Below are positions 5,208 through 42,636 of a stretch of 64,000 bases of DNA, in pieces. Where the stretch lies: assembly GCA_031411135.1 (NCBI GenBank), contig JANOAN010000007.1, forward strand, positions 4,214 through 68,213, read 5' to 3'. The number at the start of each line of letters is the position of its first letter. Position 1 is the stretch's first letter. The translations under genes and the position numbers were made by a program. The notes under the pieces are model-generated. The model searched no databases. It saw only the letters and a list, made by a program, of their open reading frames with translations, and was not told where the DNA came from. Source of the stretch: a bacterium (GTDB lineage Bacteria; Patescibacteriota; Minisyncoccia; Phycocordibacterales; CAIZLB01).

Positions 5208-5513
5208 TCAGTCAAATGCGTTGATTATGTTTAAGGCTTTACGAATCTCACCCGCATCAAGTTTTTGACTTTTCTTTATGTAACCTGAAACTATGATTAT
5301 TACTCCACGTGTGAATGTATAGAATAGGCGGATATTCTGCTCTCCTGGCATCCGTAACTCAAATAGTCTATTCGTTATCTTCTTACAGTGGGGGAGCCTA
5401 AGATTCTCTCCTTCGTTTAACAAAAGCTTGATTTCTCTATGCACTCTCGTTTGAGCTCTTTTACCTAAATTTATGAGAAATTTGTGTGCTGATCTTAATA
5501 ATATAACTTCCAC
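5208..5513 (-). CDS. higB: RelE/ParE-superfamily toxin (Gp49/HigB-like)
   Basis: 101 aa; matches the Gp49-like/HigB pattern (…RLFELRMPGEQNIRLFYTF…GVIIIVSGYIKKSQK); 27-nt gap to the HTH antitoxin gene. Confidence 0.6.
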   Translation of the reverse strand: MEVILLRSAHKFLINLGKRAQTRVHREIKLLLNEGENLRLPHCKKITNRLFELRMPGEQNIRLFYTFTRGVIIIVSGYIKKSQKLDAGEIRKALNIINAFD

Positions 5514-25062: not shown

Positions 25063-25866
25063 TCAAGAGCGTTTGACGATTGCATATGTCACGTTGTAAA
25101 CGTGAATGTATTCGTCAGGATCGACAATCAATACCTTGTATTTCTCAAGGCAGACGTCGCGATAAAAACGCAAGATCTGCAACTTGGCAGCTTCAAAGTC
25201 TGGCAGTAACTCCTTCTTGGCACGCAAACGGTCCCAGATGTTGACGAAGAATCCATATCCGTCTTTATACCTACTCGCTACGAGGGGGTGTTCATCAAGA
25301 ACCGCATTTAGTGCTTCTGTGGAGAAGATGAAGGGGCAATTCGTTTTACCTTCAAGTCGTGCTAGGAATTGCTCCGCCTCATTTACGAGGGCGGAAAACA
25401 CAGGTCCGGGAACAAAGTGATCTTGAAGTAAGAAGATGCCGCCGGGTTTTAACACCCGAAGAGTCTCATTGATGGCTTGAAGCCAATGTTCACGAGGCAG
25501 GTTGTTGAAACCATACCTGCAAATAGCGACGTCAATACTTTCCGACGAGACTTCCTGCATATTCGTCACATCTGCACAGATGGTCCGAGTCTTAGCATCA
25601 GATTGGATACTACTCAGAATCTGTGCCGAGGCGTCGACAAAGGTCATCTCTGATTCCAAGCCGACTGTTCCGAGATGAAATTGTATTGCTTTTCCTGCAA
25701 GACCTGTACCACAGCACAAATCCAGCACTTTGACGGGGTTTGGTAAGTGTAATCCACGCTCTACTCGATGAAAATCGAGCAGAGCTGAAGCATATCGTTC
25801 GGATTTTGAATCCTCAGTGAATGCTCCAAATGTTTGTAAGTAGCTTTTAGGCCATTGTTCGGGCAT
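25063..25866 (-). CDS. class I SAM-dependent methyltransferase (small-molecule/RNA MTase-like, not an obvious DNA MTase)
   Basis: VLDLCCGTGLAGKAI motif I; LKPGGIFLL post-II motif; no (D/N)PP(Y/F) motif seen; stop codon is TGA. Confidence 0.7.
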   Translation of the reverse strand: MPEQWPKSYLQTFGAFTEDSKSERYASALLDFHRVERGLHLPNPVKVLDLCCGTGLAGKAIQFHLGTVGLESEMTFVDASAQILSSIQSDAKTRTICADVTNMQEVSSESIDVAICRYGFNNLPREHWLQAINETLRVLKPGGIFLLQDHFVPGPVFSALVNEAEQFLARLEGKTNCPFIFSTEALNAVLDEHPLVASRYKDGYGFFVNIWDRLRAKKELLPDFEAAKLQILRFYRDVCLEKYKVLIVDPDEYIHVYNVTYAIVKRS

Positions 25867-26045: not shown

Positions 26046-29000
26046 TCAATTGGTAGATCTACTCTTTGTTTTTTTCATCCTTTCTAGTGTTTCCAGTATG
26101 GGTGGGTTACTTACTCCATCGGGGATCATGGGATCAGTATCTTCAGGTCTGAGACCCATCACTTCAGGATCCATTAGCCCTATTTCCCATGCATTTTTGT
26201 GTATGAAGGTTTTTTTAACAATACCGTGATTAAAAAATATCTTTGGGGGAAACGATTGCTTATCCCTAATGAAAGATGGTGCAATGAGATAGAAGCCCCA
26301 TTGTTTAAAGCTCTCTATAAAGCCATTCAGGTTATTCAACGATTGTGGGGTCATCGTGTGCGTTCTTCCAGCATTCAACACAAGCTTACCTTTTGAATCT
26401 TTAGGATCACCAAGGTTTGTCGATATCACAAACTTATACCAGAGCGGGTTTGTCTTAGAAAAGCCCATGATTGTTGCCACCCGCATAACATCTTTCTTGT
26501 CCTCTCTACCAAGAAGATCTTTCCAATTCCTAAAAATTGCCTTTGCCTTATCCTCATTAGTAAACATTACAGCAAGTACTGGAGGTTGATCTGGCATAAC
26601 AAGGTAAGCGATGCCCTCCCATCCAGCTTCATCCCAAAGATGCCCCTCGATAATTGAGATATTTTCCATCTGATCATGACGTACAGCCTTTCTATCTTTA
26701 TCATCTTTATCGTCCTGTTTATCTGGATCGTCCCTCAATTGCTTCAGCAGTTCGTGCTTTACCTTGCCAGCTTCAGCTTCGTCATATTCATACTTTTTGT
26801 TTTCATCTGAAATCCATTCTCTGATATCTCTTTTTGGCTTATATCCCAAAACATTACCCTGAACCACCAGCGGTGATGAGAATGTAAACGCTCGCACACT
26901 AACCTCTTCATCTCGGAATAGTTTTTCAAGATCCGTATCTGCATTTCTGAATGAAATTGAGTGACCGATAATATTGACCACCGCACTAAACACATCCTTG
27001 TAGAGGCTTTCCTGCTCAGAACGCTTTAGAGAATGAGGGTTAAAATCTCCACAAGCTATATCAAATGCAATAGCTCCATCTTTTTTCACCTCATGGGAAA
27101 CCTTAACACCTAAAGTATCATCGTTGGTGATTGTGATATTCACGATACCATTGTTTCCGTGCGAATCCACCTCTACAGTTGTTGCCAAAAAACCTTCAAG
27201 AGATGCGAGGATGTATTCTCCTATTTCAATGTTAGGGCTACAGTTTTTTGTTTTAATAATAAAGGTTGTGCCTAAAATAACAGACTTAAGCTCAACTTCA
27301 TCACCCTTATAGAAAGCTGGTACATCTGGTAACTGAGCTTGGCTCGGCTGTGTAAAATGAGAGTCAAAATATTCATCAAGTTCTTCGTCGTTCATTTTTT
27401 CTAACAAAACTTGAGGTAAGGCTTTCTTTCCCCCTAATCGGTATATCAATGCGTGTGCAGCGAGATCTAGATCCATACTCATTAGGGTGTCTGGCAGAAG
27501 CTCCAAGGATGGCAAAACCTCATCAGGAGTTTTAATCAACAACAATCCCAACTGAGCACCATAGAACATGTCATCATGCAGAAGTTTTTCCGCCTCTTCA
27601 CTGGATTTAATGTAGTTAACATTCATCATATGGTTCAACTTGTGCCACTCCAGTGAATAACCCACACGTCCCAAGCGAAGTTCCAACAGACGCAAATGAC
27701 CATAAGATAGCAATTGAAGCTTGGTCACTTCACTGTGCTTATGAAAATCCATAGTCGCATAAGAAGCGGCATGTAACATCGCACTCCTTGCAGCCCAAAG
27801 TAGACCGACCTGCTCATACGCACAGGACAGCTGGGCAAGAGCAATTATTAAACCATCTCGTACCTCATCTTTGTAAAGCGGAACAAGAGATCTTCCTAGG
27901 CAATCAATCGCCTTGTAGTATCGCTTACCCTCAACATGCTGTGCGGCTCGATTTAACAGCACCATTGCAGACTCCGTAGTGCTTTTTCTTTCTGACATTA
28001 CTTCAAGCATTTTGTCTTGAAGCTTTTCAAAGCTAGGCACACCGCTGTAAAAATCATTCATCTCGCTGGTCATTTTGTAGAGCGTGTCCAGTGAGAATCC
28101 GAGAAGACCTTTGGAACGCTCAACTATCTGGAAAAGGTTATTGAAGATTACATCCATTGCCGCCTTGTCATCTCTTGATTCAGGCAGCACTAAAATATTT
28201 AGCAACAACTCAGCATGTAGGGCTGCGCTTGGTTTTGATTCATCGTCTTTAAAGGCTTCGAGTCTTCCTTGCACGGTCTTTTTCTTTTCATCTGCATACA
28301 CTGGATCAACCTTGTCACTAATAACGGACAAGGTCTTTAAAACACTCGCAAGATTACCCAACCTCTCCACCTCAAAAAGATTTGCAGAGTCTTTTGCCAA
28401 GGACTCTATCTCTTCATAGTTGCCGATAAGTGCATCAAAGTCGTCATACCAAAAATACAATGTCCACACTTCATGATATCTGGCATTAAAATACTGTTCA
28501 GAAGTTCCGTATTTCTGAGCAAGCCTCTTTGCACGAGCGAACAAACCATCCACATCCGTTTTAACCTTGTTCATTTCAGCACCGCACAATGCTGAAGACA
28601 GTGCATCATCGACGATTGCAAGATTCACTCTATCTTCCTGTACCGCCTGATCTATATCCTTATTCAAAGCCTCAAATGTTCTTTGTCGCTTCGTATCTTT
28701 AGGTCCTGTGCTGACGACCTCTTTATAAGAATCTCCCATCTTCAATTCAACAATTGCGAGATTCTCTCTCTTATTTGCAAAGATTTTATCAATTATCCAT
28801 GTTCGATCATGTATCGTTACTAGAATCCCGTATTGTTTAGTCAGCTCGTCTTCGACTTTTGCACGCTGATCTGCCTTAATAAACCGACTTGTCACAAAGA
28901 ATACTTTTGTATAACCCCTGTCCGTTCCAATCATCTTTTTAACGTCACCCTCTACCTTCGTTTTCCATTTGACTGTGGTGCTGAAAGCGAACCCTCACCG

Positions 29001-29324
29001 TTCAGTAGAAGTTTTTTCGACTCCAAAATAATAAGTATCTTTGATTGCCTCTGACACTGGCGTAGTTTCTGTGTCGACCTTGCCATCACCACCACCTACT
29101 GGACCAGTTTGAGGTCTTAGGTTCGGCTGAATCTCATGTTCACAAAGCTTTCGAGCAAACTCTTCAAAATCATATTCCTGCTTTCTTGTAGAGAGAGTGT
29201 CCAAGTGATACTCCAATTTCAGACTATCAAGCAGAGGTTCTTTGACCATTCGAGTGTCAGAAAAGCTACCGGGGCGGCGTTGCTGCATAAAGCTCTTTGG
29301 AGAAAAGTTTGAGTCCTCTTTCAT
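26046..29324 (-). CDS. large (~1090-codon) protein with N-terminal Mrr-type PD-(D/E)xK restriction-endonuclease-like domain, interrupted by a single in-frame TGA at 28995-28997
   Basis: The 109-aa ORF (28995-29324) and the 962-aa ORF (26046-28934) share one frame and are separated only by TGA. The Mrr_cat-like motif spans the junction (…FEEFARKLCEHEI…GPVGGGDGKVD…YYFGVEKTSTER*…KVFFVTSRFIKADQRAKVEDE…ILVTIHDRTWIIDKI). The remainder is a helical (TPR-like) region followed by beta-rich domains with no recognisable family. Confidence 0.6.
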
Positions 29325-30031: not shown

Positions 30032-30059
30032 CCAGTTCATTTTCGTGAACAATTCCCAG

Positions 30060-30224
30060 TTATTTCCCTGTATTAACAGGGAATGTCTTCCACTGTTATT
30101 TCACAGTATTAACTGTGATGTCGCCGCTGTTATTCCGCATTATTAACAGCAGAGCCTGTAGCAGTTTTCTAGCAGTATTAACAGCTATGGACCAGCGTTT
30201 TTCTAGCGTTATTTAACGTCGCTA
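30060..30224 (+). repeat. iteron-like array: five ~22-26-bp degenerate direct repeats at 33-36-bp spacing, each with an internal dyad around TATTAAC
   Basis: ttatttccctgtattaacaggg (30060); ttatttcacagtattaactgtg (30096); gttattccgcattattaacagc (30129); ttttctagcagtattaacagcta (30165); ttttctagcgttatttaacgtcgcta (30198). Confidence 0.65.
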
Positions 30225-30265: not shown

Positions 30266-31132
30266 ATGGGAGGAAGCAAACCTTATGGACCAAGATTCAC
30301 AATTTTGGATAAAGCAAGACTTCTTGATAACAAGAAAGTAAGACCTATTGATAGATCCGATAGGGCTTTTATTGATAATGGAAAGCTTGAGGTGTTTTGG
30401 TCCATTAACAGATTCCGTAACGAGTTCATTAAAAAGGCAGAAGACACTCGAAAAGTTTTAGGTATTGAGGTTCTCGATCCTAAAGAAGATGTTTTGATGA
30501 CCAAACTCGGTCACAAAGGTCGTCTATTTGTTCCAAAAAGGCTCTACGTCGGCGTGAACTCCTCATTCCTGAGTAAGTATCCGAAAACCGCTGAAAACCT
30601 TAGAAAATTGATATATTCGAATGTTTTAGTGCCGCTCAACTGGTCCTACAACTTCTATCCTTTTGTTGAGTATTACATTTTATATGGAAAAAAGTCCCCT
30701 GTGGTATTACAACCTAATCCAATGCAGTTTCAGCTAATCATGAAATATCATCGGGAGCTTGGTAGAAATACGTATACAAAATCCGATATCGCATTTTTGA
30801 AACAACAGGCTGTTATTGAGCGATCAGAAAATCCGAAACGTATCAGAGAAATTGAAACCATTGCTTTAGCAGTAGATAAACTACCCAAACTAAAAAATAC
30901 TGACCGACGACCAAAAAACTTAGCACTAAAGACTGCTACTTTTAAGATATTTGAAAAAATACCTGTAAATGCGAAACCTGCAGAAATAAAGCAGTTTATG
31001 GAAGACAATTTATACAACATCATCGATGAATACAGAGAGGATTACAACCCTGATGAAGATGAGGAAAAAGTACTGCTCGCAAATGTGAAAAGGCTCTACA
31101 AAGAGTATCTAAAACTTATCCCCATGAATTGA
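30266..31132 (+). CDS. hypothetical protein (288 aa); candidate replication initiator or iteron-binding regulator
   Basis: Begins 40 bp downstream of the iteron array. Basic and charged; no recognised motif. Confidence 0.45.
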   Translation: MGGSKPYGPRFTILDKARLLDNKKVRPIDRSDRAFIDNGKLEVFWSINRFRNEFIKKAEDTRKVLGIEVLDPKEDVLMTKLGHKGRLFVPKRLYVGVNSSFLSKYPKTAENLRKLIYSNVLVPLNWSYNFYPFVEYYILYGKKSPVVLQPNPMQFQLIMKYHRELGRNTYTKSDIAFLKQQAVIERSENPKRIREIETIALAVDKLPKLKNTDRRPKNLALKTATFKIFEKIPVNAKPAEIKQFMEDNLYNIIDEYREDYNPDEDEEKVLLANVKRLYKEYLKLIPMN

Positions 31133-31702: not shown

Positions 31703-31918
31703 ATGCAGACACTACACAATAAAAACGAACAAGGTACACTGATTGAGTACGGACGACGTGCCCAAGAGTCTTTGTGTAGTAATGCACTTTCTAGAGAAAC
31801 ACTTGTTGCAATTGAAGAACTTGGTGAAATATTAAAAAATATTCATGCTAGATTAGCGTCAGAAGGCTATGAAATCATAGATGGTTGCATACGTAAAAAG
31901 ATGCAGAAACGAGTATGA
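31703..31918 (+). CDS. small protein (71 aa) translationally coupled to the recombinase gene (RDF/accessory candidate)
   Basis: Its stop overlaps the recombinase start in an ATGA arrangement (31915-31918). Confidence 0.4.
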   Translation: MQTLHNKNEQGTLIEYGRRAQESLCSNALSRETLVAIEELGEILKNIHARLASEGYEIIDGCIRKKMQKRV

Positions 31919-33636
31919 AAAAATCAAGTATAAAAACTGAAAAAGAAATCGTAGAAGAAATACTCAAGGGAACTTTCCGTGAGTTTTATTTGATATACAA
32001 CAGAAGAAGCATGGATGAGGCGGAAAGCCAAAAGAACTCCATTTCATACCAAAAAGCAGAAAATACAAAGTTTGCTTTCAGAGAAAGGCTTTCTGTTGCT
32101 CAATTTACAATCAAGGGATTTTTGGCGGACGGTATCATTTCCGAAAGTCACTCTGGTTTTACTGAGGATGACGATGTAGTGATCACAGAAGAAGGTATTG
32201 TTCAATACAGGATTGATCGACCAAAGTTTCTACGAATGCTTCAGTTTGTAAGCCAAGGATACTTCAAAGGTGTTATTTGCCTTTGTTGGGACCGTATCAG
32301 TAGGAATAAGGGTGACGACACCGTTATTCGCAAACTTATGCGTAAAGGTGTTGATTTTCGTTTTGCTTATGCAGAGTATGAAAAGTCTAGTTCTGGTGCT
32401 TTACATATGGACATTGACGGTATGTTCTCTCAACACCACTCACGTGTTACTAGTGAGAAAGTCACTATATCTACACGTAACTCGAGGGAAAAAGGTATTT
32501 GTACTTACCGTGCTCCTATTGGTTATCTCAACGAGGGAAAGATGGAAGAAAAACCTCTGGATCCATTTCGTGCACCTGTAATCAAGCAAATGTATGAGTA
32601 CTATGCGACAGGTGACTGGAGTTTGTCAGACCTAGCTCGTTACGCAAATGAGCAGGGCTTTACGACTGTACCAATGCGACGAAGACGAACGAAAGAAGAA
32701 ATGCTTGCCGAAGAAGATGAGTTTGATGAAATTGAAAAGACTTCACGTCCCATAAATGAAAACCATATCAGCAGAATACTCACAAACCCTTTCTATACTG
32801 GGAAAGTCCTCAATTCAGAGGGTAAATACATACCGAGTAATAGCCATCAAGCTATTGTAACCAAAAAGCTATTCGAGGATGTGCAGGCTGTGCTCAAAAA
32901 GAAAAAAGTGATCGTTCATTATACCGAAAAATTGGACCAACCACTCCGAGGTATCGTACGTTGTGAACATTGTGGACGTGTATACACCCCTTACACAAAG
33001 AAAGGTATCCAATACTACAATTCTCGATGCGTAAATGGATGCTCGAACACACTTAAGAACTTTAACTTTGATTTTATTGATAAGAAGATAGGTGATCTTA
33101 TCACTGGCTTACATTTTACTGATGAAGAAATCGAGCAGATGGATGCTCGGGCAGGTACTGAGATTGCTTTGCTCGAAGAAAGACGGCACAAGACACTGGA
33201 CCAAGTTGAGAGAAAGAAGAAAAAGATACGTGAGGATCTTGCGTATCTACGTTCAAACAAAATACCTCTTTTGAAATCGGGTGTATACACTCCAGAAGGT
33301 TATGTTGCTGAAGAAACCAAGCTTGATAGTGAACTTTCAGAACTAAAAAATAGTGAAGATGTTTCGGACATCGCAATGCACGAAACTATGAAAGACGTTC
33401 AAAAACTTTCAGAACTCGTTAAAAACGTTGCAGCATATTATCAATTCGCCAAACCACACGAAAAAGAGCAGATTGTTCGTGTAATCTTTTCAGAACTTTC
33501 AATTTCCCAAAATACGTTGCAATTTAAGTGTAAAAAAGGATTTGAGTGCTTCGAGAATCGCTTTCTTGCTATTTGTGACCCCACAGAGAATCGAACTCTG
33601 ATTACTGCCTTGAAAAGGCAATGTCCTAACCGTTAG
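31915..33636 (+). CDS. large serine recombinase (resolvase catalytic domain + recombinase domain + zinc ribbon + coiled coil)
   Basis: 573 aa; N-terminal YLIYNRRSMDEAESQ (serine-recombinase R-x-S…Q catalytic region); zinc ribbon CEHCGRVYTPY…CVNGC; long C-terminal coiled coil. Confidence 0.8.
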   Translation: MKKSSIKTEKEIVEEILKGTFREFYLIYNRRSMDEAESQKNSISYQKAENTKFAFRERLSVAQFTIKGFLADGIISESHSGFTEDDDVVITEEGIVQYRIDRPKFLRMLQFVSQGYFKGVICLCWDRISRNKGDDTVIRKLMRKGVDFRFAYAEYEKSSSGALHMDIDGMFSQHHSRVTSEKVTISTRNSREKGICTYRAPIGYLNEGKMEEKPLDPFRAPVIKQMYEYYATGDWSLSDLARYANEQGFTTVPMRRRRTKEEMLAEEDEFDEIEKTSRPINENHISRILTNPFYTGKVLNSEGKYIPSNSHQAIVTKKLFEDVQAVLKKKKVIVHYTEKLDQPLRGIVRCEHCGRVYTPYTKKGIQYYNSRCVNGCSNTLKNFNFDFIDKKIGDLITGLHFTDEEIEQMDARAGTEIALLEERRHKTLDQVERKKKKIREDLAYLRSNKIPLLKSGVYTPEGYVAEETKLDSELSELKNSEDVSDIAMHETMKDVQKLSELVKNVAAYYQFAKPHEKEQIVRVIFSELSISQNTLQFKCKKGFECFENRFLAICDPTENRTLITALKRQCPNR

Positions 33637-33712
33637 ACGATGGGGCCATATTTGTCCCAAAGAATATAACATTTTTTTGGAAAAAGGCAAAAAAGAGGTA
33701 TATAATTAGCAT

Positions 33713-40811: not shown

Positions 40812-42636
40812 ATGTTTCTATTTTTACTTTCCTTCATCGCTGGGATTCTAACAATTCTTGCACCATGTACGCTTCCTTTGCTTCCACTTATGGTTGGAAG
40901 CTCGATTGCGGGGGGTGGGGAATCAGCTTCAACAAATAAAAAGAAAGCTTTTACGATTGCAGCGTCGCTCGGTATTTCAATTGTTCTCTTTACTTTCATC
41001 CTAAAGGTCAGCACTGCCTTTATTGATATACCGCCGTATACTTGGTCTATTATTTCCGGAGTGATCATTGTAATATTCGGATTAATCACAGTTTTTCCAT
41101 CCATTTGGGAAAAAATTCCCTTTGTTTCAAAGTTAAGCATTGGATCTAACAAACTACTCGGTACTGGCTACCAAAAGAAAAGTTTCTGGGGGGGATGTAA
41201 TTATCGGTGCTTCACTTGGTCCTGTATTTACTACATGTAGTCCAACTTACTTTATTATTCTGGCCACGGTTCTTCCGCAGTCGTTCTTGGTGGGTCTTTT
41301 AGATTTAGTCGCATATGCCGTGGGGCTCTCAGGGATGGTCCTTCTCGTGGCTTTTCTTGGGCAGAAAGTTGTAAATCGATTAGGGGTGTTCTCTGATCCA
41401 AGAGGGATATTTAAAAAAGTCCTCGGAATCATATTCTTGATTATTGGTGTACTGATACTATTTGGTTTTGACAAAGTGCTTGAAACTAAACTTTTAGATT
41501 CAGGAATCTTTGATATTACAAAAGTTGAACAAAAGTTATTAGAATTAAATAATAAACCAAGCGTTAGACTGGAAGACCAGTTGAAAGATTTGCCAGCCCA
41601 GACATGTAACGCGACGTCATGTTTACCAACTGTTAATTTGAATGAAACAACAACTAATGTTGTTTCTACTACTTCTGTAATTCAAAAGATTCAAAAATCA
41701 CAAGATGCTAGGCCTAAGGGTATTCCCGCACCTGAAATTACTAATCCAAGTGATTTCATCAACACTGATGGTAAACCAATTACAATTTCACAATTTAGAA
41801 ATAAAAAAGTTGTACTCATAGATTTCTGGACTTACAGTTGTATTAACTGCCAAAGAAGCCTTCCATATGTAAACGCTTGGTATGACAAATACAAAGATCA
41901 AGGATTAGAAGTAATTGGAATTCACACCCCAGAATTTGCTTTTGAAAAAGTAAAAGAAAACGTTGAAAAAGCCACCAAGAGATTTGGAGTTAAGTATCCA
42001 GTGGTAATGGATAATAATTACGGAACTTGGGGAGCGTTTGACAATAATTCTTGGCCGAGAAAATACTTGATTGATGAAAATGGGGAAATTATATATGACC
42101 ACATTGGTGAAGGGGAATATGACACGACAGAGTTGGTTATACAAAATGCGTTAAAAAATCTACATGCAAATGATCAGATGACTGTCTCGAAAGGGATTGT
42201 GGCACCAACAAACGCCATCGATCCTTCAACTATCAAAGTGGGTAGTCCTGAAGTTTATTTTGGTTCTGGAAGAAATCAGTACTTGTCGAATGGTCAAAAA
42301 AGAACAACAGGTGTTCAACAATTTACAATTCCCCAAACTATATTTAAAAACTCATTGTACCTAGGCGGTGCTTGGAATATTCAGAATGAATATGCTGAAG
42401 GACAATGATCTTCAACTATTACTTTCGATTACAAAGCTAAAAACGTCTACATGGTCGCAAGCGCCGACAAGCCAATCACTTTGCACATATATATATAGAC
42501 AACGTTAAGACTAGAGACGTGATAGTTTCAGAAAACACCTTGTATACCTTAGTAGAGGGATCAGAATATGGAGAACACCTCTTGAGAATCGAAACTGACG
42601 GGGCAGGGCTGAAGGCATTTACCTTTACGTTCGGGT
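40812..42636 (+). pseudogene. DipZ/DsbD-like fusion (CcdA transmembrane domain + TlpA/redoxin thioredoxin domain + C-terminal beta-sandwich ending FTFTFG), disrupted by a frameshift in a G7 run, an in-frame TGA and a slip in (TA)5
   Basis: CcdA N-terminus ILAPCTLPLLPLMVG (40812-41240). The frame changes at ctGGGGGGGatg (41186-41194) into ORF 41140-42408, which carries the redoxin domain (FWTYSCINCQRSLPYV). TGA at 42406-42408 is in frame with …SSTITFDYKAKNVYMVASADKPITLHIYI, and a -1/+1 slip in atatatatata (~42487-42497) leads to …DNVKTRDVIVSENTLYTLVEGSEYGEHLLRIETDGAGLKAFTFTFG*. Confidence 0.55.

Follow-up and report, generated by a model that had tools for sequence, protein, structure and literature searches.

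Two open reading frames follow one another on the minus strand of the window (the whole 64-kb stretch of DNA that we analysed), parted by an in-frame TGA. The question is whether they are two genes or one, and, if one, what its product does and why it is interrupted. The locus is probably one large gene that was inactivated recently, and intact members of its family probably act as single-protein sensor-effectors of the kind known from Avs and Upx.

One reading frame in a large family

The 109-aa ORF and the 962-aa ORF (26046-28934) share one frame, and the sole break in its 1,092 codons is the TGA (...TSTER*GFAFSTTVKWKTK...; Table 1). The listed start of the 962-aa ORF is an internal ATG and has to be corrected; the true continuation runs directly after the stop, from position 28994. 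When the stop is read through, the gene gives a product of 1,092 residues. This fused product aligned end to end with 174 database proteins, and one intact ORF encodes the protein in 78 of 80 genomic loci of the family; thus, the fused frame is no chance juxtaposition. One full-length homologue (P0001) is 91% identical to it in amino acids. The earlier note had claimed a single gene split by one in-frame TGA, and had named homologues that are uniformly two genes as the observation that would speak against it. The frame and the full-length homologues agree with the claim, the family being one ORF in the 78 loci above.

Table 1. Features of the disrupted gene and of the island around it (positions in the window; residues are those of the fused product).
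Feature	Position	Strand	Remarks
Whole disrupted gene	26046..29324	-	1,092 codons plus terminal TGA; unnamed family of ~1,090-aa proteins
5' fragment, 109 aa plus stop	28995..29324	-	First half of nuclease domain
Premature stop TGA, codon 110	28995..28997	-	TGG>TGA relative to homologues' Trp
Predicted N-terminal Mrr-like PD-(D/E)xK-fold domain, ~residues 45-205	28710..29192	-	Stop lies within domain
Central region, ~residues 215-645	27390..28682	-	Read as helical with weak TPR character, on the basis of database labels and isolated weak Pfam matches
Predicted zincin/M1-aminopeptidase-like fold without zinc motif, ~residues 675-830	26835..27302	-	
Acidic linker, ~residues 840-880	26685..26807	-	Poorly conserved, low confidence
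Predicted C-terminal alpha/beta (flavodoxin-like) domain, ~residues 885-1060	26145..26672	-	
Class I SAM-dependent methyltransferase	25063..25866	-	180 nt downstream, same strand; Pfam Methyltransf_25/11
Four iteron-like 25-nt repeats, 34-36 nt spacing	30056..30185	.	Upstream of 288-aa ORF; repeat family D1
288-aa ORF, candidate Rep in the earlier note	30266..31132	+	
Large serine recombinase (integrase)	31915..33636	+	Pfam Resolvase, Recombinase, Zn_ribbon_recom; PHROG 95 integrase, E 8e-58
tRNA-Glu(UUC)	33576..33647	-	ARAGORN; Rfam 61 bits; overlapped by 3' end of recombinase ORF

A search with the N-terminal-domain profile returned 1,534 representatives at E<=1e-3. The protein, of ~1,090 residues, falls into ~1,500 clusters at 50% identity and has so far gone without annotation. 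Relatives were found in 364 of 185,579 species genomes, spread over many phyla and including an archaeon, and family genes were carried by 15 plasmids and 5 IMG/VR contigs. A literature search by accession and by domain keywords turned up no paper that deals with the family. The family is large, unnamed and horizontally mobile, and our analysis supplies its domain map. In order, the predicted parts would be a variant Mrr-type nuclease-fold head, a helical stretch with weak TPR character, a zincin/M1-peptidase-like fold that lacks HExxH (and thus its zinc motif), an acidic linker and, at the C terminus, a flavodoxin-like domain.

Domain organization

The fused protein has no match among the Pfam, NCBIfam or PADLOC models. 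The earlier note had described an Mrr_cat-like nuclease at the N terminus, and what agrees with this description is the fold and the congruence of the motif. A restriction-endonuclease core (alpha-beta-beta-beta-alpha-beta) was found in the head, with PD-(D/E)xK nucleases as its nearest structural neighbours. A significant match to Mrr_cat (PF04471) at the level of sequence, however, is absent, both from the fused protein (no Pfam match at E<=1) and from all 22 family members compared with the model. Alignment of the family profile with E. coli Mrr by hhalign (the identity of the Mrr query was checked by Pfam) covered only 7 columns with a probability of 0.5%. PDB sequence searches with the whole-protein and N-terminal-domain profiles gave noise only, and the 150 matches listed for the N-terminal-domain profile share the same architecture, with no bridge to a named family.

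Seven residues of the head (D80, D84, S115, K123, D127, R136 and Y138) are invariant in over 100 sequences drawn from many phyla. D84 lies at the start of strand 2; the 5' fragment carries D80, D84 and E86 in its QTGPVGGGDGKVDTET loop, together with the FEEFA helix. The position of the E/Q of Mrr is occupied in the family by the invariant Ser-115, and Lys-117, present in most clades (SAKK), is replaced by Thr in the window's own clade (STTV). K123 and D127 are on the next helix and could complete a Cfr10I-type site. The invariant QTGPxGGGDGK loop was modelled with low confidence. The head is thus predicted to be an Mrr-type nuclease fold with a variant active site, and could be a non-catalytic REase fold.

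If it were, the family would not be an immune nuclease at all: the head would lack catalytic activity, as do the inactive REase domains associated with NACHT, and the protein would serve mobile elements in another way, for example by binding or partitioning DNA, in addiction or as a regulator. The Ser in place of E/Q in all members and the missing Lys in one clade fit this alternative, as do the existence of inactive-REase families in Pfam (for example, NA-iREase1), the lack of a PADLOC match and the housekeeping character of some neighbourhoods (both described below). However, the invariance of the seven residues argues for a working site, and the gene's sporadic occurrence, its transfer between domains of life and its repeated loss by nonsense mutation suit a costly conflict gene. 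We regard this alternative as rather unlikely.

The statement of the earlier note that the ~850 residues after the head match no sequence family held against Pfam, NCBIfam, PADLOC and PDB sequences. Some members bear the JGI label 'TPR repeat protein', and in 22 members Pfam gave only sporadic, weak matches to RPN7 (1/22) and TPR_12 (1/22). Residues ~675-830 were assigned to a thermolysin-like fold, with a conserved helix AExxLAALExFLAT (E703, E710 and T715). The fold is common to M1 aminopeptidases and thermolysin-like zincins, but the family lacks their HExxH and other conserved His: of 221 members, 13 contain an HExxH, which falls within or near residues 675-830 in just one case, and no His is conserved in this stretch. 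The domain is, thus, not a metallopeptidase, and is probably a binding module. The linker that follows has pLDDT below 50 (residues 177-232 of the model) and a column conservation of 0.20, and the flavodoxin-like domain has four invariant aromatic residues (W897, W902, Y963 and W1046). The family has no NTPase: Walker A was present in just 3 of 221 members and at no constant position, and no NTPase was matched in Pfam, NCBIfam or PADLOC. The nuclease head is the most conserved part and the beta-rich, sensor-like part the least, as would be expected if a fixed effector were coupled to a sensor that keeps evolving.

Genomic surroundings and proposed function

As the earlier note had claimed, the gene adjoins a large serine recombinase, an iteron-like array and a SAM methyltransferase (Pfam and repeat analysis). 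Of its iteron/Rep module, the array stands, but the 288-aa ORF has neither a Pfam nor a PHROG match that would make it a Rep. The 'GC-richer block' is weak, as its G+C fraction of 0.41-0.43 compares with ~0.38, and 0.42 is reached elsewhere in the window. The recombinase presumably marks the right end of the island, and tRNA-Glu(UUC) is the probable integration site; a Logan contig built from SRR20217193 (L003) ends at 33613, inside this tRNA gene. No att direct repeats of at least 14 nt were found for the island, as expected for a serine recombinase. A scan for promoters and terminators stayed at chance level.

The methyltransferase is specific to the island of the window and is no conserved partner of the family. 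Indeed, none of the neighbours is: among the 80 loci, the largest neighbour cluster occurs at 11, in variable positions. Homologues occur as solo genes whose surroundings are of a mobile or defence type. By qualitative inspection, defence, toxin-antitoxin or mobility genes lie in 8 of the 10 homologue neighbourhoods (chromosomal or plasmid) examined and in the island of the window, and the other two (P0012 and P0033) have a housekeeping look. Neighbours seen include integrases, an ICE, IS elements, a Tn7-like transposon, RM systems, HipA and TacAT toxin-antitoxin genes, AbiEii, NACHT and HamA. Among 112 immediate neighbours, defence matches were to HerA, HamA, Type I S, Type III MTase, PD-T7-1, PD-T7-5, SoFic and IetS, and further matches to rve, Resolvase, ParB and NERD. 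The PADLOC search that the earlier note had proposed gave nothing: 0 of 5,027 models of PADLOC-DB 2.0.0 match at E<=1. Its 'defence gene' is in keeping with the contexts but is retained as a working hypothesis. By analogy, a nuclease head with a large sensor-like body on mobile DNA suggests an anti-virus defence gene, and a single-gene defence nuclease is a plausible, circumstantially supported identity for the family.

The closest known systems are Avs, Upx, the Mrr-type restriction enzymes and, for one domain, the M1/thermolysin-like zincins discussed above. Avs4 (PDB 8dgf), an antiviral STAND, has an N-terminal Mrr-like nuclease, and the family head is likewise an N-terminal nuclease fold; in both, one polypeptide joins an N-terminal effector to a C-terminal repeat-type sensor, the repeats of the family being weakly TPR-like. 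In contrast to Avs, the family lacks the STAND (NACHT/NB-ARC-type) P-loop NTPase module with its Walker A, has a variant active-site motif, and adds the zincin-like and flavodoxin-like C-terminal domains. Upx is a single-protein defence (PDB 9wuf; PMC13099982, PMC13601566) whose PD-(D/E)xK core is C-terminal, at residues 1121-1272 (PMC13099982), so that the domain order is reversed relative to the family, where the nuclease fold occupies residues ~45-205. The structural match to Upx was moderate and not placed on a particular region. Likeness in sequence was absent, with no PADLOC Upx match and 9wuf missed by the family profile among PDB sequences at E<=10. In the modification-dependent restriction enzymes Mrr, MspJI and AspBHI (Type IV and IIM; Mrr_cat), the nuclease is C-terminal rather than N-terminal, its Q/E is Ser in the family, no HMM or profile match was significant, and the family nuclease is followed by ~850 residues of unrelated domains. 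No Mrr_N winged helix or SRA-like DNA-reading domain was matched in the fused protein or in 22 members.

In the mechanism that we propose, the C-terminal two-thirds (the helical repeats and the peptidase-like groove) would bind an invader-derived protein or peptide, and binding would relieve auto-inhibition of the nuclease head or drive its oligomerization. The head would then cut DNA and the infection would be aborted; in this genome, the nonsense mutation would have switched the system off. A more specific version is offered tentatively: the family may be an unrecognised, widespread, NTPase-free single-protein immune receptor, in which the degenerate peptidase-like groove and helical repeats capture the invader protein or peptide by beta-augmentation, the capture mode proposed for Upx, and so trigger an Mrr-type nuclease with a Ser-containing variant site. 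If the receptor reading were true, bacteria and archaea, from CPR bacteria to methanogens, would have a pattern-recognition nuclease with a new architecture. If the family is a defence system, nuclease-plus-sensor immunity would be possible without a STAND NTPase switch, and a peptidase scaffold would be reusable as a sensor. With this proposal, the family gains a testable function.

Origin of the stop codon

In the alignment, the column of the stop is Trp in 20 of 21 homologues and Phe in one. The closest homologue (90.8% nucleotide identity, gap-free) has TGG at the site, and the codons read CGG TGA GGG in the window and CGA TGG GGA in the homologous locus L001. As nearly all homologues have TGG here, the stop is, by this comparison, a TGG>TGA nonsense mutation, a G>A transition in the conserved Trp-110 codon (W110*) inside the nuclease-fold domain. 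Ordinary translation thus ends after 109 residues. Relative to the 91%-identical intact homologue, dN/dS was 0.116 overall, 0.106 upstream of the stop and 0.117 downstream. The remainder of the gene is intact and keeps the signal of purifying selection, and with dN/dS of ~0.12 on both sides, W110* appears to be recent. The annotation in this genome should, therefore, be a pseudogene (W110*) and not two hypothetical proteins. Of the four explanations that the earlier note had left for the stop, we favour recent inactivation, with recoding disfavoured and an assembly error unlikely.

An artefact of sequencing or assembly, which would leave the gene of the organism intact, might be suspected since a single base (TGG versus TGA) differs in an otherwise perfect 3.3-kb frame. 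However, contig L003 is 100% identical over 9,702 nt, TGA included. It belongs to a separately built assembly, although it may share reads with the GenBank assembly, so that a minority intact allele is possible. Searches of JGI metagenomes with a pattern across the stop gave no match to an intact, near-identical allele. As short-read assemblies, moreover, seldom carry consensus substitution errors, we consider an artefact very improbable.

In this genome, TGA works as an ordinary stop. Under table 11 the coding density is 90%, and reading TGA as sense across the window merges no genes except this one; the other in-frame TGA pair is two genes, a toxin/antitoxin pair. TGA terminates the toxin gene (5208-5513) and a host ORF (41140-42408). 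An alternative code or selenocysteine was rejected, given that no other gene merges and that the homologues have Trp (TGG), not TGA or Cys. tRNA-Trp misreads UGA, and a functional gene could thus be imagined in which UGA is decoded by near-cognate tRNA-Trp read-through or incipient UGA>Trp reassignment, the low dose of wild-type protein limiting toxicity. The stop replaces exactly a conserved Trp, 34 of 35 host ORFs of at least 150 aa end in TAA or TAG with three of four TGA-terminated ORFs lying in the island, and the rest of the gene is undamaged; but a very recent mutation would likewise leave a low dN/dS over the whole divergence, no other gene in the 64 kb depends on TGA being read as sense, TGA ends the two genes above, and every homologue has a sense codon at this position, be it TGG or another. 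We consider decoding very unlikely. A second family member (L084) has a separate TAA at codon 422; this unrelated nonsense codon speaks for ordinary decay rather than decoding, and points to sporadic decay elsewhere in the family.

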